From a virus, in the IMG/VR virus record IMGVR_UViG_3300022073_000015: a stretch of DNA of 49,077 bases. The stretch is one strand, 5' to 3'. The notes beneath the pieces are model-generated. The model made no database searches, was not told where the DNA came from, and worked only from the letters and a program-made list of their open reading frames with translations. Made by a program: the position numbers and the translations under genes. Shown here one piece after another: positions 3,364 through 46,390 of this stretch (within the stretch, counting starts at the first letter, position 1; every line of letters begins with the position of its first letter).

Positions 3364-3392
3364 ACCCTATCATTACTTGACGCGCTCGTCAA
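3364..3392 (-). promoter_or_regulatory. Dyad-type promoter (site a): TTGACG-N17-TAGGGT, with the -35 inside the dyad TTGACGcgctCGTCAA (3377-3392)
   Basis: Read on the minus strand. Points into 2287..3333. Confidence 0.6.
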
Positions 3393-3401
3393 CGATAAGG
3401 C

Positions 3402-3427
3402 AAAAAAATCCCGCCACGGAGGGCGGG
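3402..3427 (-). terminator. Intrinsic terminator of the leftward non-coding unit
   Basis: Minus strand reads cccgcc-ctccgt-ggcggg followed by attttttt. Confidence 0.75.
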
Positions 3428-3572
3428 TAAAAGTGCAGAGCGAGAGATACAAGGCGATGGTGGATTAATTCATTTCGCCGCTATTGTCACGTTTCACAAC
3501 GTTACGTTAACGACTTCGGCTTACCCTGCCGCTGGGAGACGGAGAATCACCCCCTGCCCGGTTGGTATGGGG

Positions 3573-3699
3573 TTGTGATGGCATGAATCGAACATGCTTC
3601 CATCGGTGCGCTGCCGATTGGGTTACGCGCGACTCACGGATACTTAGCTAGCTTTTCACCGTGAACCTATTCCCTAGCTCGCCATTGAGCTTCACCACA
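3573..3699 (-). ncRNA. tRNA-like element with a non-canonical cloverleaf and an extra hairpin
   Basis: All read on the minus strand:
- Acceptor tgtggtg (3699-3693) pairs with catcaca (3580-3574).
- D-arm gctc-aatggc-gagc (3690-3677).
- Extra hairpin tcacgg/ccgtga (3664-3634).
- Anticodon-like arm atcgg-cagcgca-ccgat (3618-3602); no U33.
- T-arm gcatg-ttcgatt-catgc (3597-3581). Confidence 0.35.
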
Positions 3700-3736
3700 A
3701 CGGAAAGAGCACTTAAAACTCATATCGCACGTCGAA

Positions 3737-3809
3737 ACGCCCGGCAGAGAATCGAACTCTGCAAATGCTCTTACCTGTTGTGTGGTCGGACCGCCACGAT
3801 GACCAGTCG
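3737..3809 (-). ncRNA. Degenerate tRNA-like fragment (perfect T-arm only)
   Basis: T-arm cagag-ttcgatt-ctctg (3761-3745). The acceptor pairs 6 of 7. I could not fold a D-arm or an anticodon stem. Confidence 0.2.
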
Positions 3810-3911
3810 CTGTTGTTCATACCCGGCTACACATTCCGGCTACCCGCTGTTGGTAAGAAAAAGGACCACCCCGGACCGCTAAAGGCACATGTGCTATATA
3901 CCTGCGATTTA

Positions 3912-3940
3912 AATATTGCATTGTTTGACGTGACTGTCAA
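3912..3940 (-). promoter_or_regulatory. Dyad-type promoter (site o): TTGACA-N17-AATATT, with dyad TTGACGtgacTGTCAA at 3925-3940
   Basis: Minus-strand reading. The dyad also sits between candidate -35 (ttgcat/ttgttt) and -10 (aatagt/tatact) hexamers of a rightward promoter for 3974. Confidence 0.45.
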
Positions 3941-3973
3941 TAGTATACTTAGCATTATTTTACAGGAGGTCAC

Positions 3974-14422: not shown

Positions 14423-14802
14423 CAGCGAATCTCCAAATCCGGAATGATGACAGAAGGTTTGAATGTCACGCGGTAATGATTGACGCTGGCGTTGGTACCA
14501 CTCAAATCTTCCATAAACCATGTGACATTATCAGAAAGACCCAACATGTGTTTTTTATAAATACCCGGACCAGTTTTGCAAATTACACCTAATGTGCGGT
14601 CTGTGCTGCTGTTATCTTTAGAGCAAAGCCCCGTGATTTCCAGCATGAATTCACCGGTGATACCGTTGTAAAATACAAAACGGCGATTTGCTTCAAAATT
14701 ATCAGCCGCTTTGCTGACATTCCGACTAGCCACATCAGCATCGTTTACATCGCAACCTGCTAATGAAAACAAACTGAGCACAACCAGTAATGCTTTTTTC
14801 AT
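14422..14802 (-). CDS. Lipoprotein (candidate superinfection-exclusion factor)
   Basis: MKKALLVVLSLFSLAGC is a signal peptide with a lipobox. 126 aa. Confidence 0.6.
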   Translation of the reverse strand: MKKALLVVLSLFSLAGCDVNDADVASRNVSKAADNFEANRRFVFYNGITGEFMLEITGLCSKDNSSTDRTLGVICKTGPGIYKKHMLGLSDNVTWFMEDLSGTNASVNHYRVTFKPSVIIPDLEIR

Positions 14803-14820
14803 CTCTTTACTCTCCGTAAA

Positions 14821-14851: not shown

Positions 14852-15658
14852 TTATACGCGTGGCAGGTTAGCCAGATGTTCAACTGACCAGCCCGGCATG
14901 TCTAAGAGTTGTGAGCGGGTATATACCGCACCGTTCACGTTATACTTCTCCTCAACCGGAGCAACAGGCGGAGGTGTTACCAGCAGGTCAGTTGCCGGAG
15001 GTGGTGTTGCAGGTGCTGGAGCGGCTGGCGTGGATACGAGAGCAGGTGATGCGCCACCGCCGAATACCGAAGCAGCATCCGGACCGCTACCCTCACGTAC
15101 AATCAGTTCACCCGGACGGTTCAGTTCCAGCAGGTTAGGGTTGAGATACACACCCGGTGTTTTGGATGGTTTGTTACCCTTCGCCACGATGTTCACACGT
15201 ACATAGTCACCCAGCTTGATAGCATTAGCGTCCTGAATCGCATCAAGCGGTGAGTATTTGCCGACGTGATAACAGTTGTACGGAATGCGTGTGGTCAGGT
15301 TGACAATCCAGTGGCCGCGTTTGTGCGGGTCGCTGTTCGGTGCGTGACCGGCTTTATTTGGAATGTCGCTGTCACCGTCTACCACCTTCCATGAGAAGTC
15401 TGGCCGACGTGTGGTTGCAGCGTCATAACCGTTCTCAGCGTCCATTGCCGCCATAACGATTTGTTTACCCCACTCGGCATCTTTCCAGTCAGATTCACCA
15501 GTTTTGGGAATTGCGATGCCGATATACACTTCTTTGACCGGCTGACCATCTTTACCAATCAGCGGTTGTTTGGTGACTTCATCAGTACGGGTGTTTTGTT
15601 TCAGCGGATGACCGTGAATCAGGCGTGCAACAGGGGTAACAAAAGTAAATTGAGCCAT
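14852..15658 (-). CDS. ssDNA-binding protein candidate (T7 gp2.5-like / DUF2815-like)
   Basis: 268 aa. Sits between the Cas4-like nuclease and polymerase genes, as in DUF2800-DUF2815-polymerase clusters. Pro/Ala-rich linker near the C-terminus. Family call from memory. Confidence 0.4.
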   Translation of the reverse strand: MAQFTFVTPVARLIHGHPLKQNTRTDEVTKQPLIGKDGQPVKEVYIGIAIPKTGESDWKDAEWGKQIVMAAMDAENGYDAATTRRPDFSWKVVDGDSDIPNKAGHAPNSDPHKRGHWIVNLTTRIPYNCYHVGKYSPLDAIQDANAIKLGDYVRVNIVAKGNKPSKTPGVYLNPNLLELNRPGELIVREGSGPDAASVFGGGASPALVSTPAAPAPATPPPATDLLVTPPPVAPVEEKYNVNGAVYTRSQLLDMPGWSVEHLANLPRV

Positions 15659-15744
15659 TCTATAAATCCTCTCTGCTAAATGTGGGACACCCTCTGTGTC
15701 CCGGTGTTGATAAATCTACATCACTCTGACGAATGCGTCAACAA

Positions 15745-17323: not shown

Positions 17324-17352
17324 ACTATACTCCCCATTGACGGACTCGTCAA
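17324..17352 (-). promoter_or_regulatory. Dyad-type promoter (site b): TTGACG-N17-TATAGT, dyad 17337-17352
   Basis: Minus-strand reading. Sits directly downstream of the terminator at 17362-17386. Confidence 0.65.
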
Positions 17353-18348: not shown

Positions 18349-18377
18349 ACTCTATACCAATCTGACGCACTCGTCAA
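18349..18377 (-). promoter_or_regulatory. Dyad-type promoter (site c): TTGACG-N17-TAGAGT, dyad 18362-18377
   Basis: Minus-strand reading. Drives 17394..18317. Confidence 0.65.
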
Positions 18378-18391: not shown

Positions 18392-18434
18392 TTGACACGG
18401 GGTGGGTGGTGATGCACAATGACGGGAGCGTCAA
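18392..18434 (+). promoter_or_regulatory. Rightward promoter TTGACA-N17-CACAAT with dyad site d (aTGACGggagCGTCAA, 18419-18434) over the start-site region
   Basis: -35 at 18392-18397 and -10 at 18415-18420. The dyad starts inside the -10. Confidence 0.5.
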
Positions 18435-18795: not shown

Positions 18796-20531
18796 TGACA
18801 CCTGTACTATCACCCGTTGCTGATGCGGTCAGTGATGCAACACGTCCAAAGTTACGACCGTATCAGCAGGAACTTAAAAATAATATTTACAACCACTGGA
18901 ATGACCACCCGCACAGTAATGCGCTGGCGGTGTTGCCGACTGGTGCAGGTAAGACAGTTTTCTTCTCGTCGGTGATTGCGGACGTCGCCGGGGCAACCTG
19001 TGCTGTTGCACACCGTCAGGAACTGGTCAGTCAGATTAGTCTTGCACTGGCGCGTAATAAAGTGCGTCACCGTATCATTGGTCCGACAAATGTTGTGAAG
19101 ATGATTGTCCGGCTGCACATGGAAGAAGTGGGTCACAGTTATTATGACCCGAACAGTCGTCATGCTGTCGCCGGTGTTGACACCCTTGTGCGTCGCGGCG
19201 ACCAGCTTGCTAACTGGCTACCTACTGTAAAATTATGGGTCATGGACGAAGCGCACCATGTGCTGCAAGATAATAAATGGGGCAAAGCAGTCAATATGTT
19301 CCGTAATGCGCGTGGGCTGGGTGTGACTGCCACGCCATCACGTGCGGACGGTTGCGGGCTGGGTTCACACGCTGACGGCGTGTTTGACAAAATGTTTGTC
19401 GGCCCATCCATGCGTGACCTGATTAATATGGGCTACCTGACCGATTATAAGCTTTATGCGCCGCCCAGTTCTTTCCGTCGTGACGCTATTAAAAAGGTCA
19501 GTCAGACGACTGGTGATTTCGTTGCATCAGAGGTAAGTAAAGCGGTCAATGAGTCCAGTCTTGTCGCACATGATGAAAAACAAATTGTGGGTGACGTGGT
19601 GCGCACATACCAGAAACTGCTTAACGGTATGCTGACGGTCGTATTTGCACCCGATGTGGCGACCGCCACAGAGCTGGAAAAGCAGTACAACGATGCGGAC
19701 ATCCCAGCAAAGTGTGTACACGGTGCAATGCCGGATGCTGAACGTATCAATGCCGTGCGTAAATTTAAAAACCGTGAATACCTCGTACTGACATCAGTGG
19801 CCATTTTCGATGAAGGCTTTGACTGCCCCGCGATTGAGGCGGTACAGGATGTATCAGCCACGGAATCTTTCGGACGGTTTGTGCAGCGTGCAGGACGCAT
19901 GTTGCGTCTGAAAGGCGGTAAGGATTTTGGGCGTTATGTTGACCACGTGGGCAATATTGAACGTCACGCTGTGATTGTTGACCACCCGGAAGGAACAAAA
20001 ATTGAACTGTGTCACCGGGAGTGGACACTTGACCGGCGTGAGAAGTCAGGTGGTAAAAGTGAGAAGTCAGCAGTACGTTCCTGTGTTGCCTGTACCAGCA
20101 CGTATGAACGTTACCTCAAAGCGTGCCCTTACTGTGGTGAACCAATACCGCAACCAGCAGCAGGACAGCGCAGCAATGTAGAATGGGTGGACGGGGATTT
20201 AAACGAGCTTGACCCCGCTGTACTGGCGCAGCTACAGGGTGAAGTTATTGGCGCACGTGAGGACGTCAATCAGTACCGAGATAAAATGATTGGTCACGGT
20301 TTACCACCTCACGCTGTGAAGAGAAACGTTAAATTACATGAAAACCGCCTTGACGCGCTCGTCAAACTTGACCTATCATTAGCCACATGGGCCGGGTATC
20401 GCCGTGCGGAAGGTCTGAGCGACAGTGAAATATTTCGCAAATTTTATCTTTCGTTTGGAATTAGTTGGATCGAGGCACAGGCGCTCAAAGCGGCTGATGC
20501 GGATAAATTAAGAGAGAGGATTGGGTTATAA
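18795..20531 (+). CDS. Superfamily 2 DEAD/DEAH-box helicase with a C-terminal zinc ribbon
   Basis: Walker A LPTGAGKT and motif II MDEAHH. CVAC...CPYCG. ATG at 18795. Confidence 0.8.
   Translation: MTPVLSPVADAVSDATRPKLRPYQQELKNNIYNHWNDHPHSNALAVLPTGAGKTVFFSSVIADVAGATCAVAHRQELVSQISLALARNKVRHRIIGPTNVVKMIVRLHMEEVGHSYYDPNSRHAVAGVDTLVRRGDQLANWLPTVKLWVMDEAHHVLQDNKWGKAVNMFRNARGLGVTATPSRADGCGLGSHADGVFDKMFVGPSMRDLINMGYLTDYKLYAPPSSFRRDAIKKVSQTTGDFVASEVSKAVNESSLVAHDEKQIVGDVVRTYQKLLNGMLTVVFAPDVATATELEKQYNDADIPAKCVHGAMPDAERINAVRKFKNREYLVLTSVAIFDEGFDCPAIEAVQDVSATESFGRFVQRAGRMLRLKGGKDFGRYVDHVGNIERHAVIVDHPEGTKIELCHREWTLDRREKSGGKSEKSAVRSCVACTSTYERYLKACPYCGEPIPQPAAGQRSNVEWVDGDLNELDPAVLAQLQGEVIGAREDVNQYRDKMIGHGLPPHAVKRNVKLHENRLDALVKLDLSLATWAGYRRAEGLSDSEIFRKFYLSFGISWIEAQALKAADADKLRERIGL
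20349..20378 (+). promoter_or_regulatory. Intragenic dyad-type promoter (site e): TTGACG-N18-TATCAT
   Basis: The 16-mer TTGACGcgctCGTCAA is identical to site a. Lies inside the helicase 3' end, about 150 nt upstream of the first methyltransferase gene. Confidence 0.4.
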
Positions 20532-21714: not shown

Positions 21715-22370
21715 TGGATATTAAAACAGAGAATACGTGGCTAATGTTTGGCGATTGTCTGGAACGTATGAGGGAGATTCCAGACGGTGGTATTGATATG
21801 GTTTTGTGTGACATTCCTTATGGTGAAGTTTCTCAAAAAAGTTCGGGTTTGAGACTGCTTGACAGAGGGAATGCCGACACATGTAACATTGACCTGATTG
21901 AAATGACAAACGAACTGAACAGAGTTTGCAGTGGTTCTTTTTATATTTTCTGTGGAACTATGCAAATCAGCACGCTGGTAGAAAATTTTAAAAACATTGG
22001 TTTAACTACCCGCGTCGGGGTATGGGAAAAGACTAACCCCAGTCCAATGAATGGTACAAAACTTTGGGTAAGTGGACTTGAATTTTGTGTGTTTGCTCGA
22101 AAACCAAAATCCACTTTCAACGAACATTGTCAAAAGGCGTTATGGCAAGCACCATCCGGAAGAGCGAAAATACATCCCACAGAGAAACCTGTCAAACTAA
22201 TTGAGCGGTTGATTATTGCATCGAGTAACGAAGGCGACACTGTACTGGATAATACGATGGGCAGCGGTACTACCGGTGTTGCGTGTCGCAATACAAACCG
22301 CAAATTTATAGGTATTGAAATGGACCCCACATACTATGGTATTGCTTGTGGTCGCATACTGAGTAGTTGA
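21714..22370 (+). CDS. DNA methyltransferase (N6A/N4C, beta class), paralog 2
   Basis: CDIPYG and HPTEKP. Its C-terminal 45 aa differ from paralog 1 at a single residue. Confidence 0.85.
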   Translation: MDIKTENTWLMFGDCLERMREIPDGGIDMVLCDIPYGEVSQKSSGLRLLDRGNADTCNIDLIEMTNELNRVCSGSFYIFCGTMQISTLVENFKNIGLTTRVGVWEKTNPSPMNGTKLWVSGLEFCVFARKPKSTFNEHCQKALWQAPSGRAKIHPTEKPVKLIERLIIASSNEGDTVLDNTMGSGTTGVACRNTNRKFIGIEMDPTYYGIACGRILSS

Positions 22371-22395
22371 CCATCCCGTCAACGCGTGTCATACT
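22367..22395 (+). promoter_or_regulatory. Dyad-type promoter (site f): TTGACC-N17-CATACT, dyad TTGACCatccCGTCAA
   Basis: Overlaps the stop codon of methyltransferase 2. Points into the TetR-like gene. Confidence 0.5.
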
Positions 22396-22426: not shown

Positions 22427-22708
22427 ATGAGCAAAGATACTATTTTAGAAGTAGCTTACACAATGGCACAACGTGACGGTTTCGGTACTCTTACACGCGA
22501 CGGTGTTGCGGCGGAAGCTGGTGTAGCCATGGGTAGTATAAATCATCACTGGGTGGTCATGTCTGCATTGCGTGATGCCGTAATGCAACGGGCTGTAGAA
22601 GAAGAAAATCTTGAAATAATCGCACAAGGGATTGCATTGGGTGACAAAATCGCAAATGCGGCACCACGTGCGATTCGAGTCAAGGCCGTGAATGAGTATC
22701 TTTTGTAA
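22427..22708 (+). CDS. Truncated TetR-family-like HTH DNA-binding protein (93 aa)
   Basis: ILEVAYTMAQRDGFGTLTRDGVAAEAGVAMGSINHHW matches the TetR_N helix-turn-helix pattern. No room for a ligand-binding domain. Confidence 0.5.
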   Translation: MSKDTILEVAYTMAQRDGFGTLTRDGVAAEAGVAMGSINHHWVVMSALRDAVMQRAVEEENLEIIAQGIALGDKIANAAPRAIRVKAVNEYLL

Positions 22709-22723: not shown

Positions 22724-23407
22724 ATGGCTGGAAAAGCTTTAACAACGGAGGAATTTGTCAGCAGGGCTACAAAAGTACATGATGGAAAATACCGATATGA
22801 CAAATCGGTGTATACAGTTGGTACGATTCAATTGATTATCACTTGTCCTGAACACGGGGATTTTAAACAAATCCCCAGTAGTCACTTACGGGGGTGGGGT
22901 TGTCAGCATTGCGGAGGAAAATTAAAAAGCAATACGAATCTATTCATCAAAAAGGCACGTGAAATTTATGACGATAAGTATTCTTATGAAAAAGTAAAAT
23001 ATGTTCGCAATAAAATAAAAGTCACAATTACTTGTGCCAAACATGGAGATTTTACACAGACTCCAAATCATCATCTCAGAGGTGTAGGTTGCCCGAGGTG
23101 TGCAAAACATGGTTTCAACCCCTCAAAAAATGGAACGCTTTACGCACTTCGTTCTACCTGCGGTCAGTATGTCAAGATAGGCATAACAAATAATTTCGAG
23201 CAACGTTTTCACGCTTTAAAGCGCGTAACACCATTTGACGTATCCGTCATTGAGCGTATAGAATGTGACGGACAAACCGCCTCACAGTTAGAGAAGATGT
23301 TTCACAGAGAGTTTGAATCGGCTGGTTTTATGGGATTTGATGGTGCAACCGAGTGGTTGCGATGGTCAGCAGAGATACAACACTGGTTAAGGTTATTAAA
23401 ATGTTAA
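22724..23407 (+). CDS. T5orf172-domain protein with two Zn-ribbon modules (homing-endonuclease-like)
   Basis: Two VH(D/-)GKY.Y...CP/CAxHG...GCxxCG modules. The C-terminus (GTLYALRS..YVKIGIT...GATEWL) is homologous to that of 2287..3333. Confidence 0.6.
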   Translation: MAGKALTTEEFVSRATKVHDGKYRYDKSVYTVGTIQLIITCPEHGDFKQIPSSHLRGWGCQHCGGKLKSNTNLFIKKAREIYDDKYSYEKVKYVRNKIKVTITCAKHGDFTQTPNHHLRGVGCPRCAKHGFNPSKNGTLYALRSTCGQYVKIGITNNFEQRFHALKRVTPFDVSVIERIECDGQTASQLEKMFHREFESAGFMGFDGATEWLRWSAEIQHWLRLLKC

Positions 23408-25681: not shown

Positions 25682-25710
25682 TTGACGGACTCGTCAAGGT
25701 GAGATAGATT
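25682..25710 (+). promoter_or_regulatory. Dyad-type promoter (site g): TTGACG-N17-TAGATT
   Basis: Dyad TTGACGgactCGTCAA at 25682-25697. Points into 25743. Confidence 0.65.
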
Positions 25711-31844: not shown

Positions 31845-31848
31845 CTCT

Positions 31849-32412: not shown

Positions 32413-32441
32413 ACTCTACACCACTATGACGAGGCCGTCAA
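32413..32441 (-). promoter_or_regulatory. Dyad-type promoter (site h): TTGACG-N17-TAGAGT, dyad 32426-32441
   Basis: Minus-strand reading. The dyad overlaps the 5' leader of the rightward Mu-F-like gene. Confidence 0.6.
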
Positions 32442-33773: not shown

Positions 33774-33964
33774 TTCATCCCCCGCACAATGCGACACATA
33801 TCGTTATAGATGACCGGGTGTTTGCGGCAACCGGCAAGGTTATTATTGTGCATGGCGTGAAGAGTGTTTATTTCTCTCCCCGGTTGATATCCCCGTGACA
33901 ATAACTCATTCATGTAAATCATGAACTGCCACCGACGCCACAGAAACCACGCTAAGACTGTCAT
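33770..33964 (-). CDS. Hypothetical protein
   Basis: 64 aa. ATGA and TAATG couplings. Confidence 0.4.
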   Translation of the reverse strand: MTVLAWFLWRRWQFMIYMNELLSRGYQPGREINTLHAMHNNNLAGCRKHPVIYNDMCRIVRGMK

Positions 33965-34155
33965 TACCCTCTCCCCTTAAAGAAAATACGTTCAATCACT
34001 TCCAGCAGACCCACGACGACAATGACTGGTCCAAACGCAACCATTGTCCACGCTGTCCATTTGTATTCCAGTTGCAGCGGCCATGTGGCGATAGTGGTCA
34101 TGATAATCCACACGCACGTAGCGACCAGTACGATACCCCAGATGTATTTAGGCAT
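33964..34155 (-). CDS. Small membrane protein
   Basis: Two hydrophobic helices. ATG at 34155 overlaps the upstream stop. Confidence 0.45.
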   Translation of the reverse strand: MPKYIWGIVLVATCVWIIMTTIATWPLQLEYKWTAWTMVAFGPVIVVVGLLEVIERIFFKGRG

Positions 34156-34508
34156 CACAGCACCACCTTCTCAACGTAAGTATCCACGCCCATCCAGCGT
34201 TGTGACACTGAACCATCTGGCTTGGTTGCTGTGAAAGTGACCACACTCTCCAGCATGTTCATTTTAAAATTTGTCACAGTGAGCAGGCCATCAACGTCCA
34301 TAATCTGGTCATTGTTGCGCAGCAGTGCTGCTTTGATTCGTTGTGTTTTCATTCTCTGTTCACACCCATAAGCCATACGTAAAAGCCCGTTCGCGCAGTC
34401 CCAGTTACGGCGACGACGCGCGGATTGCTGTGCCACCTGTAACAGTTCTCTGTCAACGACCTGCACGTGTGATGCGGGACGGTTGTAGCCGGGAAGTAGT
34501 GTGTTCAT
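34155..34508 (-). CDS. Hypothetical protein
   Basis: ATG at 34508 in an ATGA overlap with the upstream gene. Confidence 0.45.
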   Translation of the reverse strand: MNTLLPGYNRPASHVQVVDRELLQVAQQSARRRRNWDCANGLLRMAYGCEQRMKTQRIKAALLRNNDQIMDVDGLLTVTNFKMNMLESVVTFTATKPDGSVSQRWMGVDTYVEKVVL

Positions 34509-34738
34509 ACAGTTTCCCATTTACCATATACGCAAGATGGGTGCAGGCAATATGAAACACCTCCTCTGTCATTTCTCAGACACATACCCGCACTACCGAC
34601 ACGGGTACCATGTATACTCAAGTTGTCATCGCCTTCACCCGCTAAAACTTCATAACTTTTTCCAACAGTAAATTCACCGCCTGGACATTCAATGCACTTT
34701 ACTAATTGACCACGTTTCATCTCTCTAACCCTCACCAT
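34505..34738 (-). CDS. Hypothetical Cys-rich protein
   Basis: 77 aa. First gene after promoter i. Confidence 0.45.
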   Translation of the reverse strand: MVRVREMKRGQLVKCIECPGGEFTVGKSYEVLAGEGDDNLSIHGTRVGSAGMCLRNDRGGVSYCLHPSCVYGKWETV

Positions 34739-34755: not shown

Positions 34756-34785
34756 AGTCTACCCCACCTTTGACGGACTCGTCAA
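34756..34785 (-). promoter_or_regulatory. Dyad-type promoter (site i): TTGACG-N18-TAGACT, dyad 34770-34785
   Basis: Minus-strand reading. Confidence 0.6.
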
Positions 34786-34825: not shown

Positions 34826-34936
34826 TTAATGTGTCCATAGGCTAATCACCGTGTAAATTGTGTAAATCGCAACACCTGCGGACCATGCGATGAGTAGTCG
34901 CACGATGAAGTAGTCAGTCCAACGTTTCTTATTCAT
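34826..34936 (-). CDS. Possible 36-aa membrane peptide
   Basis: The internal ATG overlaps the stop of the DUF551-like gene. Single TM helix. Confidence 0.25.
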   Translation of the reverse strand: MNKKRWTDYFIVRLLIAWSAGVAIYTIYTVISLWTH

Positions 34937-35129
34937 TGGGTGGCTCCGGTAGTGGTTGCCAGTGGGTGACTCGCCCACCATTTTCACTTTCAACCCACCA
35001 CCTGCCACCATTCCATGAACAGTTCCACTGATAGTGGGATTTCCCTAAATCATTCTGTTCCTCAACGTAACACCAGTAGCGTCCTATCTCTTCCGGCATC
35101 CGCTCACTACATTTAATCCAGTTTTGCAT
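34929..35129 (-). CDS. DUF551-like protein
   Basis: WIKCSERMPEE...THWQPLPEPP pattern. Confidence 0.55.
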   Translation of the reverse strand: MQNWIKCSERMPEEIGRYWCYVEEQNDLGKSHYQWNCSWNGGRWWVESENGGRVTHWQPLPEPPNE

Positions 35130-35310
35130 ACAATTGCCCCACTCGTTTCAAATCGCGCTGCGCGTGACAGCTGTAATTACCATCGTCCCATTTGACCCAG
35201 TACTGCGGCGGCTCATTCGCCACCACATTCTCAACTGTTCCGGTAACGACACCATCGGGGAACAGGCGTACCAGTGTCCCGGTTGGATAGCGTGGTATGA
35301 GAGTGGTCAT
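35113..35310 (-). CDS. Hypothetical protein
   Basis: 65 aa. Confidence 0.4.
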   Translation of the reverse strand: MTTLIPRYPTGTLVRLFPDGVVTGTVENVVANEPPQYWVKWDDGNYSCHAQRDLKRVGQLYAKLD

Positions 35311-35489
35311 GCTTTTTGTATCCTCAGTGCTTCAGACAGTTCATTTTGTGTCAGTCGGTTAAACATGTTGCACTCTGCTTCACTTAAACGTGACAGACCA
35401 TACGCAACAATGCCGCCGGGTGTTTTAACAACCGCCACGCCTTTGGAGCGCAGCATGTTGAGCGTGACTAACGTGTTGTGGAGCGTCAT
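35307..35489 (-). CDS. Hypothetical protein
   Basis: 60 aa. ATGA couplings. Confidence 0.4.
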   Translation of the reverse strand: MTLHNTLVTLNMLRSKGVAVVKTPGGIVAYGLSRLSEAECNMFNRLTQNELSEALRIQKA

Positions 35490-35971
35490 TCACCACGCTC
35501 CAGTTCACTAATCAGACGCTCCAGATACCAGCGTGCCTTTTTCACATCCTCAACGCCGTTCTTCTCTTCATAACGCCACAGGTATTTGACAACATTTGCC
35601 ACGCATACAGCTTCGATACCGGACTTACCCACCGTGGCCGCTTTGATAGCGTCGATACACTCGATACCGCCCTGTGTGTAGTGTTTCGGATGGTTCACGT
35701 TGTCAATGCATTGCGCCAGACGGTCATCATTGATACTGGTGACGCGCTCACGTTGGGCGATAGGGTGCCATTGGTCCGGGTATGACATATTTCCATTCAA
35801 TTCCCTACCTGTCACATCGCACCATTTAGCGCCTTTAAAGAGTCCTTCACACCAAGCTAAATCATCATTAACTTCCGCCTTACTGTGAGAACAGTAACAT
35901 TTGCATGTCGCCCACTCCGGTGCACCCAAAAAGTCCTTCTCACTACCTTTAATGTACTTCCACGCAGCCAT
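35486..35971 (-). CDS. DUF3310-like protein
   Basis: HPKHYTQGGIECIDAI...VKYLWRY...KARWYLERL pattern. Confidence 0.55.
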   Translation of the reverse strand: MAAWKYIKGSEKDFLGAPEWATCKCYCSHSKAEVNDDLAWCEGLFKGAKWCDVTGRELNGNMSYPDQWHPIAQRERVTSINDDRLAQCIDNVNHPKHYTQGGIECIDAIKAATVGKSGIEAVCVANVVKYLWRYEEKNGVEDVKKARWYLERLISELERGE

Positions 35972-36018: not shown

Positions 36019-36047
36019 AATATGGCACACTCTGACGGGTTCGTCAA
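36019..36047 (-). promoter_or_regulatory. Dyad-type promoter (site j): TTGACG-N17-CATATT, dyad 36032-36047
   Basis: Minus-strand reading. Drives the 35971-34826 cassette. Confidence 0.55.
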
Positions 36048-38676: not shown

Positions 38677-38748
38677 ATCATCTTGACTGGTACAGACACG
38701 TCCGTTAAACTGTTTTCAGTGTTTCAACGGGTCGAGGAGATGACAAGA

Positions 38749-40368
38749 ATGAGTACCAGATTAACAACAACTGACTTCATCAAATGTGCCAGGCAGGTAC
38801 ATGGTGATAAATATGATTATTCTCACACTGTGTATACAGGACGTCACAGTAAGCTTAGTGTGGTCTGCCCCATTCATGGGTGTTTCGAACAAACTGCGGG
38901 TAGTCACCTTATCGGTCGCGGTTGCCCGGCGTGCGGCAAAATAACAAAAGCCGATAAACGTCGTTTCACAGTGTGCGATTTCATAAAAAATGCCCGAACT
39001 GTACACGGTGATAAATACGATTATTCAAAGTCTGTTTACGTCAATTCCCGTACCAGACTCATCATCACATGTCGGGAGCATGGTGATTTCGAACAAAGTC
39101 CTGATATGCACTACAACCTGAAACAAGGGTGCCCCACTTGTGGAATTATCAGACGTTCTCAAACGCAAAACAAAGGGTTGTCGAAATTCATCACGGAAGC
39201 AAACAGTGTACACGGTGGTAAATATGACTATTCGAAAACTGATTACGTTAATGCGCGACATAAACTGGTCATTACATGTCCTGAACACGGTGACTTCGAA
39301 CAGGTTGCTGCGAATCACGTCAATTTAATGCAGGGTTGCCCAAAATGCGCAAACAGAACACGACCAGAATCACTGAGATATTCACTTGAAAAATTCATTG
39401 AACTGGCGAACCTGAAACATTCGGGCAAATATGATTATTCTAAATCGATATACATTGATAGTCAGACACCTTTAACCGTTACATGTCAGGAACATGGTGA
39501 TTTCGAACAACGCCCTTACAGTCACCTGGCTGGTTTCGGTTGTGCTAAATGCAGCGGGTGGGGGTCATCAAAAGGCGAACAAGCTATTTTCGATTACATC
39601 AAAAGTGTTCACCCCGACGCCATCCAGTCCGACCGCAATGTGATAGCGCCTTTCGAGCTTGATGTAGTTGTCCCGTCGCTGAAACTGGCAGTAGAGTTCA
39701 ACGGTATATACTGGCACAGTGAGAAATACCGCGACGAAACGTATCACATTAACAAGCGTGAAATGACGGAACAGGCTGGTTACAGACTTATCAGCATTCG
39801 TGAAGACCTGTGGAACGAGCGTCGCCCGCAGATTGAAGCAATTATTAACAATGCTCTCGGTGTGAACACACGTCGCGTCTACGCTCGTAAGTGCACTATT
39901 GTTGCCGCCGACAAAGACACCGCTGCAACCTTCTTCGACGCTAACCACGTTCAGGGTAACAGAGCAGCGTCACAATACTGGTCACTCGTCCATAATGGCG
40001 AAACTGTGGCGGTAATGAGCGCGACGCACTGGCGTAAAAAGGATGAGTGGGAGCTGGTCCGATACGCAACATCCTGTAACGTCGTTGGCGGTCTTAGTAA
40101 ACTGTGGAAACACATTGTCAAAGTGAATAACATTACCCGCGCTTACTCATACGTTGACCGCGATTTGTTCACTGGTAAAAGCTATGGTCACGCTGGCTTT
40201 AAATATGACTCCGCAACGGTGGGATTCAGAATCGTAACAGGTGAAACAACTGAATCACGACAGAAGTGGAACAACGCACCGGACGGTCTGACACAAAACG
40301 AGTGGTACGAGCGCGAAGGCGTGTGCAGGATATACGACGCCGGGCAGGACAAACTCATATTTGGCTGA
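38749..40368 (+). CDS. Hef-like homing endonuclease: four Zn-ribbon modules, a Vsr/PD-(D/E)XK-like nuclease region, and a C-terminal domain
   Basis: Four VHG(D/G)KYDYS...C..HG.FEQ...GCP.CG modules with a period of about 204-207 nt. These are followed by ELDVVVPSLKLAVEFNGIYWHSE. Confidence 0.55.
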   Translation: MSTRLTTTDFIKCARQVHGDKYDYSHTVYTGRHSKLSVVCPIHGCFEQTAGSHLIGRGCPACGKITKADKRRFTVCDFIKNARTVHGDKYDYSKSVYVNSRTRLIITCREHGDFEQSPDMHYNLKQGCPTCGIIRRSQTQNKGLSKFITEANSVHGGKYDYSKTDYVNARHKLVITCPEHGDFEQVAANHVNLMQGCPKCANRTRPESLRYSLEKFIELANLKHSGKYDYSKSIYIDSQTPLTVTCQEHGDFEQRPYSHLAGFGCAKCSGWGSSKGEQAIFDYIKSVHPDAIQSDRNVIAPFELDVVVPSLKLAVEFNGIYWHSEKYRDETYHINKREMTEQAGYRLISIREDLWNERRPQIEAIINNALGVNTRRVYARKCTIVAADKDTAATFFDANHVQGNRAASQYWSLVHNGETVAVMSATHWRKKDEWELVRYATSCNVVGGLSKLWKHIVKVNNITRAYSYVDRDLFTGKSYGHAGFKYDSATVGFRIVTGETTESRQKWNNAPDGLTQNEWYEREGVCRIYDAGQDKLIFG

Positions 40369-41234: not shown

Positions 41235-41828
41235 TCAGTTGTCGAAGAAGAACACGATACGAATATTATCCGGTTCTACGTGGTCTTTATGCCACCAGTG
41301 TTCCAGCGCTCTATTTTCGAGCGCTTCTTCAATGGGTTTCAATGCATCAATTAAATCTTCCCACTCACGATGAACCCATGAATCATTACTTGTCCATCCA
41401 CACCATGACTGAGGTTTCTCCCCTTCTTCATCCAGTTTTTTAGCTTGTTCTGGGCTAACCATCCCTTTTAGTTGAGTCGGCTTGAGAGACTCACGGAATT
41501 TTCTAATTTCTGACAATGTAGCAAAAGAATGCGAATGACCATCACAACCCCAACTTTCAACTTCATCCTTAATATATTGACAGCAATCTTCCGGTATTCC
41601 ACGTGGTTCGGAAATGCGTGGTGAACTATCAGTGTAAGAACGGACACCGCAAAGTTGGGAAAAAGCGACATAACTTCTGTCACGATTCAAATCGATTCTT
41701 TGTAATTCTTCTTCATCTTCATAAACCCCAAAATAAGGATTTTTACGAAAATGGTCATAATTGACCCATTTCGTTTCGTTATTTATTGAACGTTTAATTT
41801 CAACCATCATATGAATATCGCAACCCAT
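41235..41828 (-). CDS. Hypothetical protein (MGCDIH N-terminus)
   Basis: ATG at 41828. The ORF track extends into the promoter dyad. Confidence 0.45.
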   Translation of the reverse strand: MGCDIHMMVEIKRSINNETKWVNYDHFRKNPYFGVYEDEEELQRIDLNRDRSYVAFSQLCGVRSYTDSSPRISEPRGIPEDCCQYIKDEVESWGCDGHSHSFATLSEIRKFRESLKPTQLKGMVSPEQAKKLDEEGEKPQSWCGWTSNDSWVHREWEDLIDALKPIEEALENRALEHWWHKDHVEPDNIRIVFFFDN

Positions 41829-41859
41829 CTTCTTATCCTCTATGTTGTAAGTGACACTA

Positions 41860-41888
41860 ACTCTATACTCTCTTGACGCACTCGTCAA
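41860..41888 (-). promoter_or_regulatory. Dyad-type promoter (site k): TTGACG-N17-TAGAGT, dyad 41873-41888
   Basis: Minus-strand reading, 4 nt after the dUTPase stop. Confidence 0.6.
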
Positions 41889-41891: not shown

Positions 41892-42359
41892 TTAACTTCC
41901 CGTACTCCCGAAACCACCCTTGCGTTCCCCTTTGCGCCGGGGTGGTTCACTCAGTTCCACAAATTGTGTGCGCTGAACCGGAATGAGCATACCCTGCGCA
42001 ATTCTGTCACCGGGCTGCACACAAAACATCTCGTGTAATCCCTCGTGCGGTTCATACTGGTCAACATCCTGACTCAGTTTCACCATCACTTCATCCACAT
42101 AATCGCTGTCGATGACGCCGACACAATTTGATAACCGGACATCACTTTTAAACCCGTGACCGCTCCGGGAATAAATCATCAGTACGCAACCTTCCGGTAT
42201 GTCAAATTTAAGCCCCGTAGGAATCGTTACAGGCTCACCAACGCAACAGTAATAGGGTTTATCAATAGCAGCGTATAAATCGAAGCAGGCGCTTCCCTGC
42301 GTTGCGTATGTTGGCATCTTTGCAGTAGTGCGACACAAATGTACTTTCAACTCATTCAT
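41892..42359 (-). CDS. dut: dUTP diphosphatase (trimeric dUTPase)
   Basis: Motifs GSACFDLYA, SRSGHG, GVIDSDY and RKGGFGSTG. Confidence 0.9.
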   Translation of the reverse strand: MNELKVHLCRTTAKMPTYATQGSACFDLYAAIDKPYYCCVGEPVTIPTGLKFDIPEGCVLMIYSRSGHGFKSDVRLSNCVGVIDSDYVDEVMVKLSQDVDQYEPHEGLHEMFCVQPGDRIAQGMLIPVQRTQFVELSEPPRRKGERKGGFGSTGS

Positions 42360-42385: not shown

Positions 42386-42751
42386 TTAAGACCTTCTCTT
42401 ACCGTACTGACGATACTTATCTGACAGAATCCGTGGAATCTCGTCTACGGTGAATCCCACGGAAAACCAGTATTCATATAGCTTTTGAGCAATCCGCGCT
42501 CTGGCAAATGAATCGTAATGACTTCCTAGTCTGTACGTTTTTCGATTAATGGTTTTTGATACCATCCATCCAAATTCTGTCTGCTGCACGCCGGGACATA
42601 GTGCCGAGTGCTTGTGACGCAATGATACAAAACGTTCACGCTTAACTTTTTTCTTCTTCTCGTGAACAACTTTTGACGGTTTGTTTTCAGTTTTCACGGG
42701 TGCAGATGTGTCACCAAAATGTTTATCGAGAATAAACTGAGCGAAACTCAT
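42386..42751 (-). CDS. Basic protein with a possible AP2-like DNA-binding fold
   Basis: FGWMVSKTINRKTYRLGSHYDSFARA resembles AP2/integrase-type DNA-binding domains. Weak call. Confidence 0.3.
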   Translation of the reverse strand: MSFAQFILDKHFGDTSAPVKTENKPSKVVHEKKKKVKRERFVSLRHKHSALCPGVQQTEFGWMVSKTINRKTYRLGSHYDSFARARIAQKLYEYWFSVGFTVDEIPRILSDKYRQYGKRRS

Positions 42752-42782: not shown

Positions 42783-42811
42783 AGTCTAACACCTCCTGAC
42801 GGACTCGTCAA
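42783..42811 (-). promoter_or_regulatory. Dyad-type promoter (site l): TTGACG-N17-TAGACT, dyad 42796-42811
   Basis: Minus-strand reading. Confidence 0.6.
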
Positions 42812-42820
42812 TGCCCTGCA

Positions 42821-43060
42821 CTGGGGTAAAATGTGTATCCACAAATCAATGACTTAGATTAGTTTACCCAAAACCCCGATGGTGCTTCACTCCGTACTAA
42901 TAAATATTCTACTTGTATGTATACAATATACATATACCTATATTCTTTTCTCCCTACAGTTAATTTTAACGGGGTATTTGGGTAAAGTAGTAGTATTACT
43001 ATATAAATTAATAACTTACAAAATACCCCGAATCAGGACAAAATCATTCATCGGGGTACA
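42821..43060. repeat. Nested-dyad AT-rich element B (homolog of element A)
   Basis: Inner inverted repeat at 42863-42878 / 42970-42986 and central palindrome at 42916-42934 share an axis at about 42925. The right outer arm (43012-43029) is identical to that of element A. The left outer arm is degenerate: GGGGTA is retained at 42823. Confidence 0.75.
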
Positions 43061-43565: not shown

Positions 43566-43922
43566 ATGAGTTTGGACATGAAGGGACACATCGACAATGT
43601 GTTTAAGTCTGTACCGGCTACACACATTGGTAAATCTTTCGCATATGTCGATGGTCTGCCGGTTGAAACAGTTTCACCCCCTGTTGCATTTCAGGTAAAT
43701 ATCCAGCCACTGAACGACAAGGAAATTGACTTCCTGCGTCAGGGTGGCGAACGTGTGATTGACCCGCGTAAAATTTATGTGAACTCAGGTGACCTGAACG
43801 CTATTCAGCTTGCGGGCGAATGGGTGTTTCTGGGACAGCGATGGAAGATTATCCGCACCGATAACAGACCGTGGCGCAATTACTGCCGTGTGACCGTTGA
43901 CAGACTGGATGTGCAATCATGA
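43566..43922 (+). CDS. Head-tail joining structural protein
   Basis: 118 aa. Coupled starts and stops. Confidence 0.3.
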   Translation: MSLDMKGHIDNVFKSVPATHIGKSFAYVDGLPVETVSPPVAFQVNIQPLNDKEIDFLRQGGERVIDPRKIYVNSGDLNAIQLAGEWVFLGQRWKIIRTDNRPWRNYCRVTVDRLDVQS

Positions 43923-44503
43923 CCGATATCGAAATCTTTCAAATTCTGCGACCACACATTATGCGTGTGACAGGTGTACCAGAGTGTGTCATTGCTGACC
44001 CTAACGCACCTGCTCCGGCGAACATTGAGTATTGCACCGTCAGACCGCGTCAGAGCGTTTCTGAGAGGGGTCAGGCGAACATCTATACCTCTGACCTCCC
44101 TAACGACCAGATACGCACAGAAGTGCGCTCACAGATTGTGGCGAGTTGTCAGATTAACTTCTATCGCGGTGAAGCACTGAGACGTGCGGAACTCCTGAAA
44201 GAATGCCACAAGCTCCCCTCCGTTACGTGGGATTTATTCAAACACGGTATCGGCTGGGGTGGTACTCAACCTGTGAATAATCTGACCGCTTTACAGGCGA
44301 GTAAATTTGAACAACGTGCAGAAATTACCATTCGACTGATGTATGAAACGGTAAATATCGACGATGTGAATAATATTTTGCACGTTCCTTTCACCATTGG
44401 TGAGGGTATGGACCAGATATATTTCGAAAACGGCACGCTTCAGTTAAGATATGTTGACACCGAACCTGGTGTGAACTATCAATCCGGTGAAATTTCGATA
44501 TAA
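43919..44503 (+). CDS. Tail terminator / neck protein candidate
   Basis: 194 aa, upstream of the sheath-like gene. Confidence 0.3.
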   Translation: MTDIEIFQILRPHIMRVTGVPECVIADPNAPAPANIEYCTVRPRQSVSERGQANIYTSDLPNDQIRTEVRSQIVASCQINFYRGEALRRAELLKECHKLPSVTWDLFKHGIGWGGTQPVNNLTALQASKFEQRAEITIRLMYETVNIDDVNNILHVPFTIGEGMDQIYFENGTLQLRYVDTEPGVNYQSGEISI

Positions 44504-44539
44504 TGGTCAACGTGTACACACGCTAACGAGGCCTCGTAA

Positions 44540-45676
44540 ATGAGTTATCCTGTTGAAAATATCATCCCAATTACAACCCGGATTTCTCCGGCGGGACTGA
44601 ATACGGCAAACTTTGCATCTGCGATGCTTTTTGCCAAACCGACGGATTTACCTGTCGGGTTTGCTAAAAATACCACGCGTACTTATTTCAACCTCAAAAG
44701 TATGGCAACGGATTTTGCAACCACCAGTGAAACTTACAAGGCGGCTGCAAAATGGCTCGGCTCCACTCCGGCAGTATCTTCCGTCACCGTGTGGGCAACC
44801 GATGGCACTGATGCGAACGTCACTGCAACACTGGTGAAAGCATTCGATGCTAACTGGTGGTACTGGACGCTGTTTACTGCTGATGTCCTTGCTGTTGCAC
44901 AAAAGGTGTTGGATATCGCATCTTTCTGCGACACCAACAATATCATGTTCCCGAACAGTCAGACCGGTACGGCGGCGACAGCCATTCGTAACCCGGCCAC
45001 CACAAACGATATTGCCTCACAGCTTAACACGCTGGGTTATCGTCACGCGTTTACGGTTGCCCACGCAACAGACCCGTACGCGGCTTACGCGCTGATTAAA
45101 CACTTTGCTGTGGTGAACTACAGTGCGGATAACTCAACCATTACGGGCGAGTTTAAAAAATCTCCTGGCGTGGCTGCGGAAGACCTGACTGACACCGCGT
45201 ATGCAGCTATGATTGCGAAGAAAGTCGCATTTTACAGTGTGCTGGATTTGCAGGGTTCAAAAGATGTAGGACGCTGGCTAAACACGTGGACACATTCCAC
45301 TTATGGCGAGTTCATTGATGATGTGGTTAACCTTGACGCGTTTGTTAACTCCCTGCGTGTGGGCCTGTATAATGCACTTGCTAACCAGACGACCAAACTT
45401 GCACAGACTCCAGTTGGTCAGGCGGTTCTTATTGGTGCGGCTAAACGTGTGTGTGAACAGTACGTGCGTAACAACTATCTGGGACCACGTAACTATATTG
45501 ACCCGGACACCGGTCTGGATGCGTACACGGAAGGTTATGAAATTCTGACCCAGCCAGAAGATATTCTGGACCTGTCAGACGCTGACCGTGCTGCACGTAA
45601 ATCTGCACCGATTCGCATCCGCGTGTTCAAAGCTGGTGCGATTCATATTGCTGACGTCACTGTTGACGTTTATTAA
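44540..45676 (+). CDS. Tail sheath-like major tail protein (DUF3383-like)
   Basis: 378 aa. N-terminal pattern ...IPITTRISPAGLNTANFASAMLF. Followed by a tube-sized gene. Baseplate genes of contractile-tail type are present elsewhere in the genome. Confidence 0.5.
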   Translation: MSYPVENIIPITTRISPAGLNTANFASAMLFAKPTDLPVGFAKNTTRTYFNLKSMATDFATTSETYKAAAKWLGSTPAVSSVTVWATDGTDANVTATLVKAFDANWWYWTLFTADVLAVAQKVLDIASFCDTNNIMFPNSQTGTAATAIRNPATTNDIASQLNTLGYRHAFTVAHATDPYAAYALIKHFAVVNYSADNSTITGEFKKSPGVAAEDLTDTAYAAMIAKKVAFYSVLDLQGSKDVGRWLNTWTHSTYGEFIDDVVNLDAFVNSLRVGLYNALANQTTKLAQTPVGQAVLIGAAKRVCEQYVRNNYLGPRNYIDPDTGLDAYTEGYEILTQPEDILDLSDADRAARKSAPIRIRVFKAGAIHIADVTVDVY

Positions 45677-45691
45677 TCGGAGGACTAAAAG

Positions 45692-46105
45692 TTGAGTATC
45701 AATAATTTTTCCACAGCTGGTTCAGTCCTCACGGTAAATGGGCGTGTTATCAGTGACTGGGGTGATACCGCCACACCTTACACTGACGAACCGATTGACC
45801 AGACTACACAGATTCGTCGTGGTCAGGGTGGTAATGCTACACGTCTGGACCGTATCAATCCGGGTCGCCGTGTAACCATTTACCTCAACCCCGGCTCACC
45901 AGACAGTGCGTACATGCAGGGTCTGTATAACAGTCGTGCGAACATTGAATTGACGTGGACGCAGATTGGCACACTGGATACCGCTGTTGGTGCTGAGGGT
46001 GCAATTGTGAACGATGGTACACGTGGTCGCGCTGGTACAACCATCAGTGATGACCAGTTCATTATGGAATTCAACAGTTGGACGGCCACTCGCGGTGGTA
46101 AGTAA
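45692..46105 (+). CDS. Tail tube-like protein (DUF3277-like)
   Basis: 137 aa. TTG start with a GGAGG RBS. Confidence 0.45.
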   Translation: MSINNFSTAGSVLTVNGRVISDWGDTATPYTDEPIDQTTQIRRGQGGNATRLDRINPGRRVTIYLNPGSPDSAYMQGLYNSRANIELTWTQIGTLDTAVGAEGAIVNDGTRGRAGTTISDDQFIMEFNSWTATRGGK

Positions 46106-46111
46106 AACAGA

Positions 46112-46133
46112 GGCCCCTTACGGGGCCTTTTTT
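46112..46133 (+). terminator. Intrinsic terminator after the tube gene
   Basis: ggcccc-ttac-ggggcc followed by tttttt. Confidence 0.8.
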
Positions 46134-46360
46134 AATCCGGTAAGAACCCGTAGTCCATAATTCTCCGGTCTGTATCGATGATTTCAAAACAATGTATACA
46201 TATTAATCTTGACCGCATTCCCTGACGATACCCATCTTCATACCATCTTATTCTTCTCACGTATCTGTACTTGTGTTTTTTTACACCCATGTAAAATCTG
46301 TCTGAATGATCGCATCTCTCACACTCATCTCTGTTATTGATGACCTAACTTTAACCCACT

Positions 46361-46390
46361 TTGACGCACTCGTCAACAATTGATTATAAT
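46361..46390 (+). promoter_or_regulatory. Dyad-type promoter (site m): TTGACG-N18-TATAAT
   Basis: Dyad TTGACGcactCGTCAA at 46361-46376. Points into the chaperone and tape-measure genes. Confidence 0.7.

Follow-up and report, generated by a model that had tools for sequence, protein, structure and literature searches.

Dispersed inverted repeats embedded in the -35 region of phage promoters and a candidate 93-residue TetR-like regulator in a relative of the Jedunavirus myophages

The viral record IMGVR_UViG_3300022073_000015 (49,077 bp, analyzed as a whole and referred to here as the window) carries a dispersed 16-bp inverted repeat, hereafter the dyad, in which the half-sites TGACG and CGTCA are separated by four nucleotides and one half typically serves as the -35 hexamer of a predicted sigma70-type promoter. 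Comparisons within the window and among related phages indicate that the dyad is very probably an operator for a sequence-specific protein. The candidate regulator that we favor is encoded by the phage itself and consists of a TetR_N helix-turn-helix (HTH) domain followed by a short helical tail, with a total length of only 93 residues (the mini-TetR; 22427..22708, plus strand). The predicted dyad-promoter circuit, through which early and middle genes would be controlled jointly, is conserved from Klebsiella phages to Vibrio phages.

Results

Enrichment and spacing of the dyad

A sequence-only reading of the window had listed 14 copies of the dyad by eye and had described the 4-nt spacing between its half-sites as invariant. 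We compared the dyad counts of the window with those of dinucleotide-preserving shuffles (n = 100) and found 14 exact matches to TGACG-N4-CGTCA versus 0.08 expected, a number reached by none of the 100 shuffles. With one mismatch permitted, there were 19 matches versus 2.2 expected. The spacing is indeed invariant, as all 14 copies occur at N4 and the other spacings between 0 and 12 yielded no copy, and a de novo enumeration of every 5-mer dyad in the window placed the TGACG/CGTCA dyad far ahead of all others. A total of 16 sites look functional, namely the 14 exact matches plus two that contain one mismatch (3925 and 22367). The other three one-mismatch matches (11276, 18589, and 44809) are located within coding sequence, show no promoter context, and do not exceed the chance level. 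Every one of the 14 listed copies is present in the window, 13 of them at the correct coordinate and one displaced by a single nucleotide (20350 instead of 20349). However, the list included both of the mismatched copies and overlooked two exact ones, at 15726 (cTGACGaatgCGTCAA) and 23235 (TTGACGtatcCGTCAt). The dyad is real, and the evidence for it is stronger than first reported.

Promoter architecture at the dyads

Sites were oriented according to their best -10 box, which placed 11 on the minus strand only and four on the plus strand only, with the copy at 46361 having a good -10 box on both sides. Fifteen of the 16 dyads supply the -35 box and spacer of sigma70-type promoters. These sites read TTGAC(G/A/C)-N4-(C/T)GTCA(A/G/T) and are followed by a -10 box 17 or 18 nt past the -35 hexamer, with the dyad covering positions -35 to -20, half of it as the -35 hexamer and half within the spacer. 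The -35 hexamers are close to TTGACA (TTGACG at 13 sites, TTGACA and TTGACC at one site each), and the spacer is 17 nt long at 11 sites and 18 nt long at three, the minus-strand and plus-strand promoters at 46361 having 17-nt and 18-nt spacers, respectively. All of the -10 hexamers that had been placed 17-18 nt from the -35 half by eye were recovered. The full set comprises TAGAGT (three sites), TAGACT (two sites), TAGATT (two sites), and single instances of TATAGT, TAGGGT, TAGAAT, TATCAT, CATACT, CATATT, and AATATT, together with TAAAGT (minus strand) and TATAAT (plus strand) at 46361, all with A at position 2 and T at position 6. The promoters also point into adjacent genes, as had been suggested: a Shine-Dalgarno-like ribosome-binding site of the GGAG/GAGAG type and an ATG are found about 25-50 nt downstream, a distance consistent with a predicted start ~7 nt past the -10 box.

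An independent consensus scanner detected 14 of the 15 dyad promoters, among them most of its best intergenic matches, and missed only the one at 3377, whose -10 box (TAGGGT) is too weak. When the anchor TTGACn-16..18-TAnnnT was used alone, 13 of its 18 matches in the window were found to have GTCA at spacer positions +11 to +14, for which the chance is 1/256 each. The predicted promoter consensus is TTGACG-N4-CGTCAr-N7-TAgAgT, with a 14-bp putative operator core (TGACG-N4-CGTCA) at -34 to -21. Two other roles for the dyad were considered and rejected: it is not a GANTC methylation motif, as GANTC occurs in only ~4 of the 16 N4 spacers, and it does not have the geometry of MerR-type activation, as the promoter spacer is the optimal 17 nt and not 19-20 nt.

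A dyad without a -35 role

The remaining dyad (aTGACGGGAGCGTCAA, 18419..18434) does not serve as a -35 box in either orientation. It lies at approximately -8 to +8 of a rightward early promoter (TTGACA-17-CACAAT, 18392..18420, plus strand) and overlaps the last two bases of its -10 box. This promoter has no dyad in its own -35 region and is predicted to drive the genes 18461-18628 and 18625-18795 as well as the helicase gene (18783-20531). The arrangement of promoter and operator-only dyad is kept in ~30 distinct related sequences, in which both TGACG and CGTCA are invariant and the N4 reads GGAG, CCAT, CTAT, or TCAT. The distance between this dyad and the one at 18362 is 57 bp in most relatives and 56 and 61 bp in two. 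Similarity among the relatives stops immediately past the operator-only dyad because the downstream genes differ. Since this copy keeps its sequence without any -35 role, we conclude that the dyad is a putative operator in its own right.

Conservation in related phages

The phage is related to the Klebsiella Jedunavirus myophages and to vB_KsaM-C1 (KsaM-C1), with ~75-85% nucleotide identity over at most one third of its length. Dyads occur at syntenic places in KsaM-C1 (15 matches with up to one mismatch versus 2.2 expected) and in Geezett (17 matches with up to one mismatch versus 2.5 expected). Among inverted repeats, TGACG-N4-CGTCA heads the ranking in KsaM-C1, Geezett, and Pantoea phage AAM22, and its outer form, TTGAC-N6-GTCAA, is in first or second place in Edwardsiella phage PEi21 and Vibrio phage CP-T1. 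The sequence-only reading had made its interpretation depend upon the distal half-site being conserved in relatives, and this is what we found: the distal CGTCA in the spacer is kept in six genomes of different genera, while the N4 and the flanks vary. The same pattern is evident in the information content of 114 non-redundant related promoters, read at unforced positions. At -25, the inner C of the distal half has 1.56 bits, compared with 1.10 bits for its partner G in the -35 half (-30), and the central N4 has only 0.2-0.4 bits. The outermost base behaves differently, as the T at -35 carries 1.71 bits versus 0.43 bits for the mirror position at -20. Because this outermost base is strongly kept on the -35 side only, the data fit an operator core of 14 bp, with the first T being required additionally by sigma70.

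The mini-TetR as candidate regulator

The sequence-only reading had proposed no particular protein as the regulator. We scanned 30 non-structural open reading frames (ORFs) against Pfam, and some of them also against PHROGs and NCBIfam. Among these 30, the mini-TetR contains the only recognizable sequence-specific DNA-binding domain. It matches TetR_N (Pfam PF00440) over the full model with 26.5 bits (gathering cut-off, 24), and TetR proteins from the PDB align to its residues 4-82 (E = 6e-5). All of the 120 close homologues listed (the best 120 of 134) are 92-93 residues long and located on phage-sized contigs, and a HMMER scan identified 711 mini-TetR clusters at E <= 1e-10, most of which are 90-115 residues long. 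About a quarter of the best 149 clusters are ~165 residues long and contain an extra N-terminal HTH module; in these longer relatives (P0131, P0133, and ~38 others), the extra module lies ahead of a complete module, which would provide two reading heads per chain.

The mini-TetR gene was found in 96 phage records, including AAM22 (50% identity), PEi21 (37%), and CP-T1 (36%). Outside the structural and replication sets, only two genes are common from this phage to CP-T1, the mini-TetR gene and the one encoding the 17394-18317 product. A weakened dyad (TTGACCAYNCCGTCAA; TTGACCATCCCGTCAA at 22367..22382, plus strand, with the -10 box CATACT at 22390-22395) is also found in the promoter of the mini-TetR gene itself, and in ~30 relatives conservation starts exactly at the TTGACC of this promoter, the DNA upstream being unrelated. 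Iodobacter phage phiPLPE (L040) has a different replication module and a 30%-identical mini-TetR homologue (gp14). Its cassette promoters at 6573, 11922, and 29768 read TTGACG-N4-CGGCAA, with the distal half changed alike in all three and the -35 half kept, as sigma70 would require. Yersinia phage PY100, whose structural genes are 23-43% identical, has no mini-TetR homologue (no match at E < 1), no exact dyad, and a single TGAC-N6-GTCA. The sequence-only reading had argued that RNA polymerase does not explain the second half-site, which would imply a DNA-binding protein, probably a dimer, and every computational test supports this view. The conserved distal half, the operator-only copy, and the co-occurring phage HTH protein all suggest that the second half-site requires a sequence-specific binder.

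Genes served by the dyad promoters

According to the annotation of relatives, the plus strand encodes the late structural genes, whose continuity is broken by short minus-strand cassettes of small ORFs, and dyad promoters are predicted to drive every such cassette. The minus-strand promoter at 32426..32441 (TTGACGGCCTCGTCAT; -10 TAGAGT, 32413-32418) serves the cassette 31285-32408(-) and adjoins the start of the head-morphogenesis gene, while that at 34770..34785 (TTGACGAGTCCGTCAA; minus strand; -10 TAGACT, 34756-34761, with an 18-nt spacer) serves the cassette 33210-34738(-), which includes an HNH endonuclease gene. Three further minus-strand promoters are found at 36032..36047 (TTGACGAACCCGTCAG; -10 CATATT, 36019-36024), adjoining the prohead-protease start and driving the cassette 34826-35971(-); at 41873..41888 (TTGACGAGTGCGTCAA; -10 TAGAGT, 41860-41865), driving a gene at ~41235-41835(-); and at 42796..42811 (TTGACGAGTCCGTCAG; -10 TAGACT, 42783-42788), driving 42386-42751(-) and the dUTPase gene 41892-42359(-). 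The perfect dyad at 46361..46376 (TTGACGCACTCGTCAA) offers a -35 box in both directions, with -10 boxes TAAAGT at 46348-46353(-) and TATAAT at 46385-46390(+). It leads to 46132-46290(-) and, on the plus strand, to the tail chaperone/tape-measure operon starting from 46437. The dyad had been proposed to sit on essentially every early or accessory transcription unit, which is about right, except that the copy at 46361 also serves this late-looking operon.

The leftward replication genes are driven from three dyads. The promoter at 15726..15741 (TTGACGCATTCGTCAG; minus strand; -10 TAGATT, 15713-15718) precedes a gene encoding a Gp2.5-like single-stranded DNA-binding/annealing protein (14852-15658(-)) and has syntenic counterparts in the related sequences L001 and L002. 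The promoter at 17337..17352 (TTGACGAGTCCGTCAA; minus strand; -10 TATAGT, 17324-17329) drives 16869-17156(-) and the exonuclease gene 15745-16872(-) and has a terminator (17387-17368(-)) immediately upstream, while that at 18362..18377 (TTGACGAGTGCGTCAG; minus strand; -10 TAGAGT, 18349-18354) is the leftward early promoter for a conserved protein of unknown function (17394-18317(-)). In the rightward replication operon, the dyads at 20350, 22367, 23235, and 25682 form internal or restart promoters. The first (TTGACGCGCTCGTCAA, 20350..20365, plus strand; -10 TATCAT, 20374-20379) lies within the 3' end of the helicase gene, feeds the methyltransferase and nuclease genes from 20531, and is also found in L001, L002, and L003. 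The dyad promoter at 23235..23250 (TTGACGTATCCGTCAT, plus strand; -10 TAGAAT, 23259-23264) serves the primase gene (23353-25656) from inside a homing-endonuclease-like gene (22718-23407). The dyad at 25682..25697 (TTGACGGACTCGTCAA, plus strand; -10 TAGATT, 25705-25710) lies directly past the primase terminator (25647-25664), drives 25743-26129 and the genes beyond, and has syntenic counterparts in L001-L004.

The two leftmost dyads also face the minus strand. At 3377..3392 (TTGACGAGCGCGTCAA; minus strand; -10 TAGGGT, 3364-3369), the promoter drives another homing-endonuclease-like gene, 2287-3333(-), and has a terminator (3427-3410(-)) immediately upstream. The one-mismatch dyad at 3925..3940 (TTGACAGTCACGTCAA; minus strand; -10 AATATT, 3912-3917) is kept in relatives and precedes the ATG of the baseplate operon (3974) by 33 nt. 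Its promoter faces ~500 nt without a credible ORF (3405-3905 of the window), which end at the strong 3427-3410 terminator and are 71% identical to the corresponding gap in KsaM-C1. The predicted fold of this transcript was no better than that of shuffled sequences (z = -0.72). The stretch may yield a non-coding transcript, or it may exert antisense control upon the start of the baseplate operon.

Several features of the neighboring genes were also apparent. The two homing-endonuclease-like genes (2287-3333(-) and 22718-23407(+)) both encode T5orf172/MUG113 domains with treble-clef zinc fingers. The minus-strand gene contains four 183-nt tandem repeats (2514-3318), while the plus-strand gene lies between the mini-TetR and primase genes, and its dyad promoter at 23235 would restart transcription toward the primase gene. 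The DNA methyltransferase genes 20531-21241 and 21711-22370 are paralogous, with blocks of 74-80% nucleotide identity and a nuclease gene between them. In addition, several first genes of early units share a near-identical translation start region, GGAGAGTAGAGAGATGAA(A), at 18442-18459, 14797-14815, 31839-31857, 32361-32379, and 34715-34733. Identity is 100% between the copies at 18442 and 31840, and the same string is found past the operator in many relatives.

Genome form and a late element

The first and last 55 bases of the window (1-55 and 49023-49077) are identical, indicating a complete, circularly closed genome of 49,022 bp. Searches for a prophage form gave no match in 5,426 complete E. 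coli genomes, although the main hosts of the group are Klebsiella. No close homologue was present in the PLSDB plasmids or, in a search of one genome per bacterial species, among the matches listed. The GenBank record of CP-T1 gives its source as 'induced lysogen'. Rfam and tRNA scans of the window returned no match.

For the late genes, another conserved element seems to take the place of the dyad promoters. A ~230-nt non-coding element occurs twice (27402-27660 and 42834-43040), in each case just upstream of a large late operon (terS at 27794 and neck at 43083). The element carries no dyad, and its core of 70 nt (TTTTAACGGGGTATTAGGGTAAAGTAGTAGTAATA...AACTTACAAAATACCCCG) is ~81-86% identical at both positions in KsaM-C1, Pantoea phage AAM22, and Edwardsiella phage PEi21, the neck copy of KsaM-C1 being weaker. 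The element includes an invariant inverted repeat (GGGGTA/TACCCC) with arms ~50 nt apart; as a candidate RNA element it was rejected, as it exhibits no covariation beyond this invariant repeat. It may be a late promoter or a late control region. Between the element and the start of terS, three to four direct repeats of TGKGGTATTGG (27683-27745) may constitute a packaging or terminase recognition site. Four ~205-nt tandem repeats (38773-39525) are also present within the large ORF 38683-40368, which corresponds to a head-decoration or fibre-like protein in relatives.

Discussion

The layout of the phage dyad resembles a typical TetR operator. The E. coli TetR-family regulator RutR binds TTGACCAnnTGGTCAA, with most of its sites located inside genes, and the table of RutR sites also includes TAGACCGACTGGTCTA at the ydhM (nemR) promoter (PMC2475637). 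Like the phage dyad, the RutR box is a 16-bp palindrome of 6-4-6 organization with the same outer TTGAC/GTCAA, whereas its inner bases are CA/TG and those of the phage G/C. We take TAGACCGACTGGTCTA to be the box of another TetR-family protein, NemR. The phage candidate shares with the TetR family both the TetR_N domain and a site on the regulator's own promoter, an arrangement typical of autoregulation, but its 93 residues leave out the ligand-binding/dimerization domain. Unlike RutR, the phage also has ~16 dispersed sites, with the promoter copies fused to the -35 box. RutR was absent from the 30 PDB hits obtained for the mini-TetR, which shows no particular closeness to it.

Phage regulators of several kinds offer further comparisons. 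Lambda Cro, a small dimeric HTH protein, lowers early promoter activity in lytic growth, and the mini-TetR would similarly be a small phage HTH protein produced from an early operon and acting upon dyad operators that overlap early promoters, with early shut-off as the proposed outcome. Unlike the phage studied here, with its ~16 single operators, Cro belongs to another fold family and acts at two operator regions of three sites each; it also has a partner repressor, CI, which is lacking here, and there is no evidence of lysogeny in this phage. The P1 C1 operators, the 'stoperators' of mycobacteriophage L5 gp71, and the conserved inverted repeats of phiC31 are many dispersed sites for the immunity repressors of temperate phages. 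They share with the dyad the principle of one regulator and a dozen or more genome-wide copies of a short site, several of them over promoters. However, the sites of P1 and L5 are asymmetric, and those of L5 lie within transcribed regions, whereas the phage dyad is strict and in register with the -35 box; moreover, the phages that carry it are reported as lytic. For this phage, a timer of the lytic cycle is more likely than an immunity repressor. The middle promoters of T4 are likewise marked as a temporal class by a phage-specific element in the -35 region, the MotA box at -30, which is used with AsiA. In contrast to the dyad, the MotA box is not palindromic and replaces the -35 box, while the phage retains a near-consensus TTGACG, and polymerase should therefore need no activator. 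The promoter-early stem-loop (PeSL) cassettes of T4-type phages consist of a repeated conserved early promoter, often beside a hairpin, that flanks small accessory genes. The phage resembles them in its repeated early promoter, its accessory cassettes, and its mosaic boundaries at the promoter. We know of no report of PeSLs with an operator dyad or a dedicated regulator, and the phage half-sites are conserved far past the needs of recombination.

A literature search yielded no paper containing the 16-mer, and the Jedunavirus papers that matched our searches do not discuss the promoters of these phages. A tetR-like gene was noted in phiPLPE, CP-T1, and 138, with nothing on promoters (Comeau et al. 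2012). We found no description of the dyad-promoter circuit in the literature searched. This kind of system, a phage regulator with many dispersed promoter operators, is well known. As far as we have seen, its new aspects are a strict dyad in register with the -35 box, a TetR reduced to a minimal domain, its occurrence in virulent phages, and its conservation from Klebsiella to Vibrio phages.

We also considered whether the dyad might be an operator for a protein other than the mini-TetR, which we regard as unlikely but by no means negligible. Such a binder could be a gamma-proteobacterial host factor, for example a RutR-like member of the TetR family, or another phage protein, such as the 17394-18317(-) product or one of the small early ORFs. 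All of the operator evidence fits another binder equally well, and the missing canonical dimerization domain of the mini-TetR also favors it. The dyad of the mini-TetR promoter agrees with the RutR consensus at 12 of 14 positions, equal to several genuine RutR sites, but typical phage dyads depart from the RutR box at the inner positions. A host factor would furthermore need to be conserved across Klebsiella, Pantoea, Edwardsiella, and Vibrio, as the same dyad is found in phages of all four, and yet PY100 infects an enterobacterium and has no dyad. Nor does the dyad fit what we take to be the consensus sites of CRP, FNR, and LexA. Among phage proteins, the 17394-18317 product is the other clade-wide core gene product and has no detectable family; however, no DNA-binding domain was detected in any of the other ORFs tested.

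Three further explanations dispense with a dedicated binder of duplex DNA and are disfavored mainly by the operator-only copy, by the variable N4 between fixed half-sites, and by the presence of a second -10 box at one site only. It is improbable that the promoters are simply copies of a mobile or gene-converted cassette in which the palindrome is inherited or aids recombination. In relatives, gene content does switch exactly at the promoter boundaries, several dyad copies lie directly past a terminator hairpin, and the likeness among copies reaches past the dyad as a 43-65 nt family (families D2 and D8). However, the N4 and spacer bases vary freely while the half-sites are fixed over large evolutionary distances, which argues for selection upon the half-sites and against recent copying. 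The operator-only copy also lacks the rest of the cassette, and the distal half in phiPLPE is altered consistently in three copies. Very improbable is a palindrome that merely reflects the shared -35 of back-to-back divergent promoters. The copy at 46361 has precisely this appearance, with TATAAT at 18 nt (plus strand) and TAAAGT at 17 nt (minus strand), but it is the only one of the 16 sites with a convincing -10 box on both sides; several others have a convergent gene 3' end or a terminator on the other side, and the operator-only copy provides a -35 box on neither strand. Least probable of all, by a hair, is a dyad that acts as an RNA or single-strand hairpin, such as a leader or terminator element. 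The dyad can pair as a 5-6 bp stem with a 4-nt loop, and read-through late transcripts would hold it beside the start codons of the head-morphogenesis and protease genes. Against this, the dyad lies upstream of its own promoter's start and is thus absent from those transcripts, no T-tract follows it, and the stem, being invariant, offers no compensatory changes. The start predicted at the operator-only site would also lie within the dyad and leave an RNA without the left arm, which argues against an RNA hairpin.

Returning to the mini-TetR as repressor of the dyad promoters, several observations weigh against it. The protein has no C-terminal ligand-binding/dimerization domain (93 residues versus ~190-220 for the TetR family). 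Its AlphaFold2 model (22 close homologues, mean predicted local distance difference test score of 82, monomer) turns the HTH into one continuous helix and was not used as evidence, and a Foldseek search of the PDB with this model gave no match below E = 4.7. Alteromonas phage R9Y2 encodes a 30%-identical mini-TetR homologue and has no enriched TGAC-N6-GTCA, its sole enriched dyad being a coding tandem repeat, which either speaks mildly against the candidate or reflects a change in specificity. The co-occurrence of dyad and mini-TetR is based upon a small sample, is confounded by shared ancestry, and has a single genome (PY100) as its negative control. The controlled class is also not purely early, because the plus-strand side of 46361 has a consensus TATAAT facing a late-looking operon. 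Finally, a bound repressor could also block late transcripts that read through the dyads.

With these points taken into account, we infer that a protein binds the dyad and that it probably does so as a dimer. We consider its identity with the mini-TetR reasonably probable. Repression rather than activation seems quite likely, since the -35 box is near consensus, the 17-nt spacer is optimal, and the operator-only copy lies over a start site. The complete statement, in which the mini-TetR represses this promoter class through the dyad operators, is in our judgment evenly poised. In the mechanism that we propose, host sigma70 RNA polymerase would fire the near-consensus dyad promoters at once after infection, and the mini-TetR would build up, expressed both with the rightward operon and from its own promoter. 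Two HTH units would then occupy the two half-sites, and the bound mini-TetR would occlude the -35 box and spacer or, at the rightward early promoter at 18392, the -10 box and start site. The whole class of dyad promoters would be turned down together, with the mini-TetR's own promoter shut off last via its weaker dyad, a form of negative autoregulation. The likely benefit would be the removal of head-on early transcription from the cassettes that lie antisense within the late operons.

More speculatively, a TetR protein devoid of ligand and dimerization domains could act as master timer throughout an entire clade of virulent myophages. Its ~15 operators embedded in -35 boxes would silence all early promoters at once, among them those that fire head-on from the antisense cassettes, after which two copies of the 70-nt late element would transcribe ~30 kb of late genes, and the family of >700 clusters would represent widespread, unstudied minimal phage regulators. 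We regard this extended scenario as possible but doubtful.

If the proposed circuit is correct, a 93-residue protein would recognize a dyad without a canonical dimerization domain, which is relevant to protein-DNA recognition, and it could serve synthetic biology as a compact repressor with a ready-matched set of promoters. For the phages themselves, such a circuit would explain the tolerance of accessory cassettes inserted antisense in late operons. Jedunavirus-like phages are under development against Klebsiella pneumoniae, and their transcription is unstudied in the searchable literature. The regulatory map of these phages would then consist of one operator, one small regulator, and ~15 promoters.

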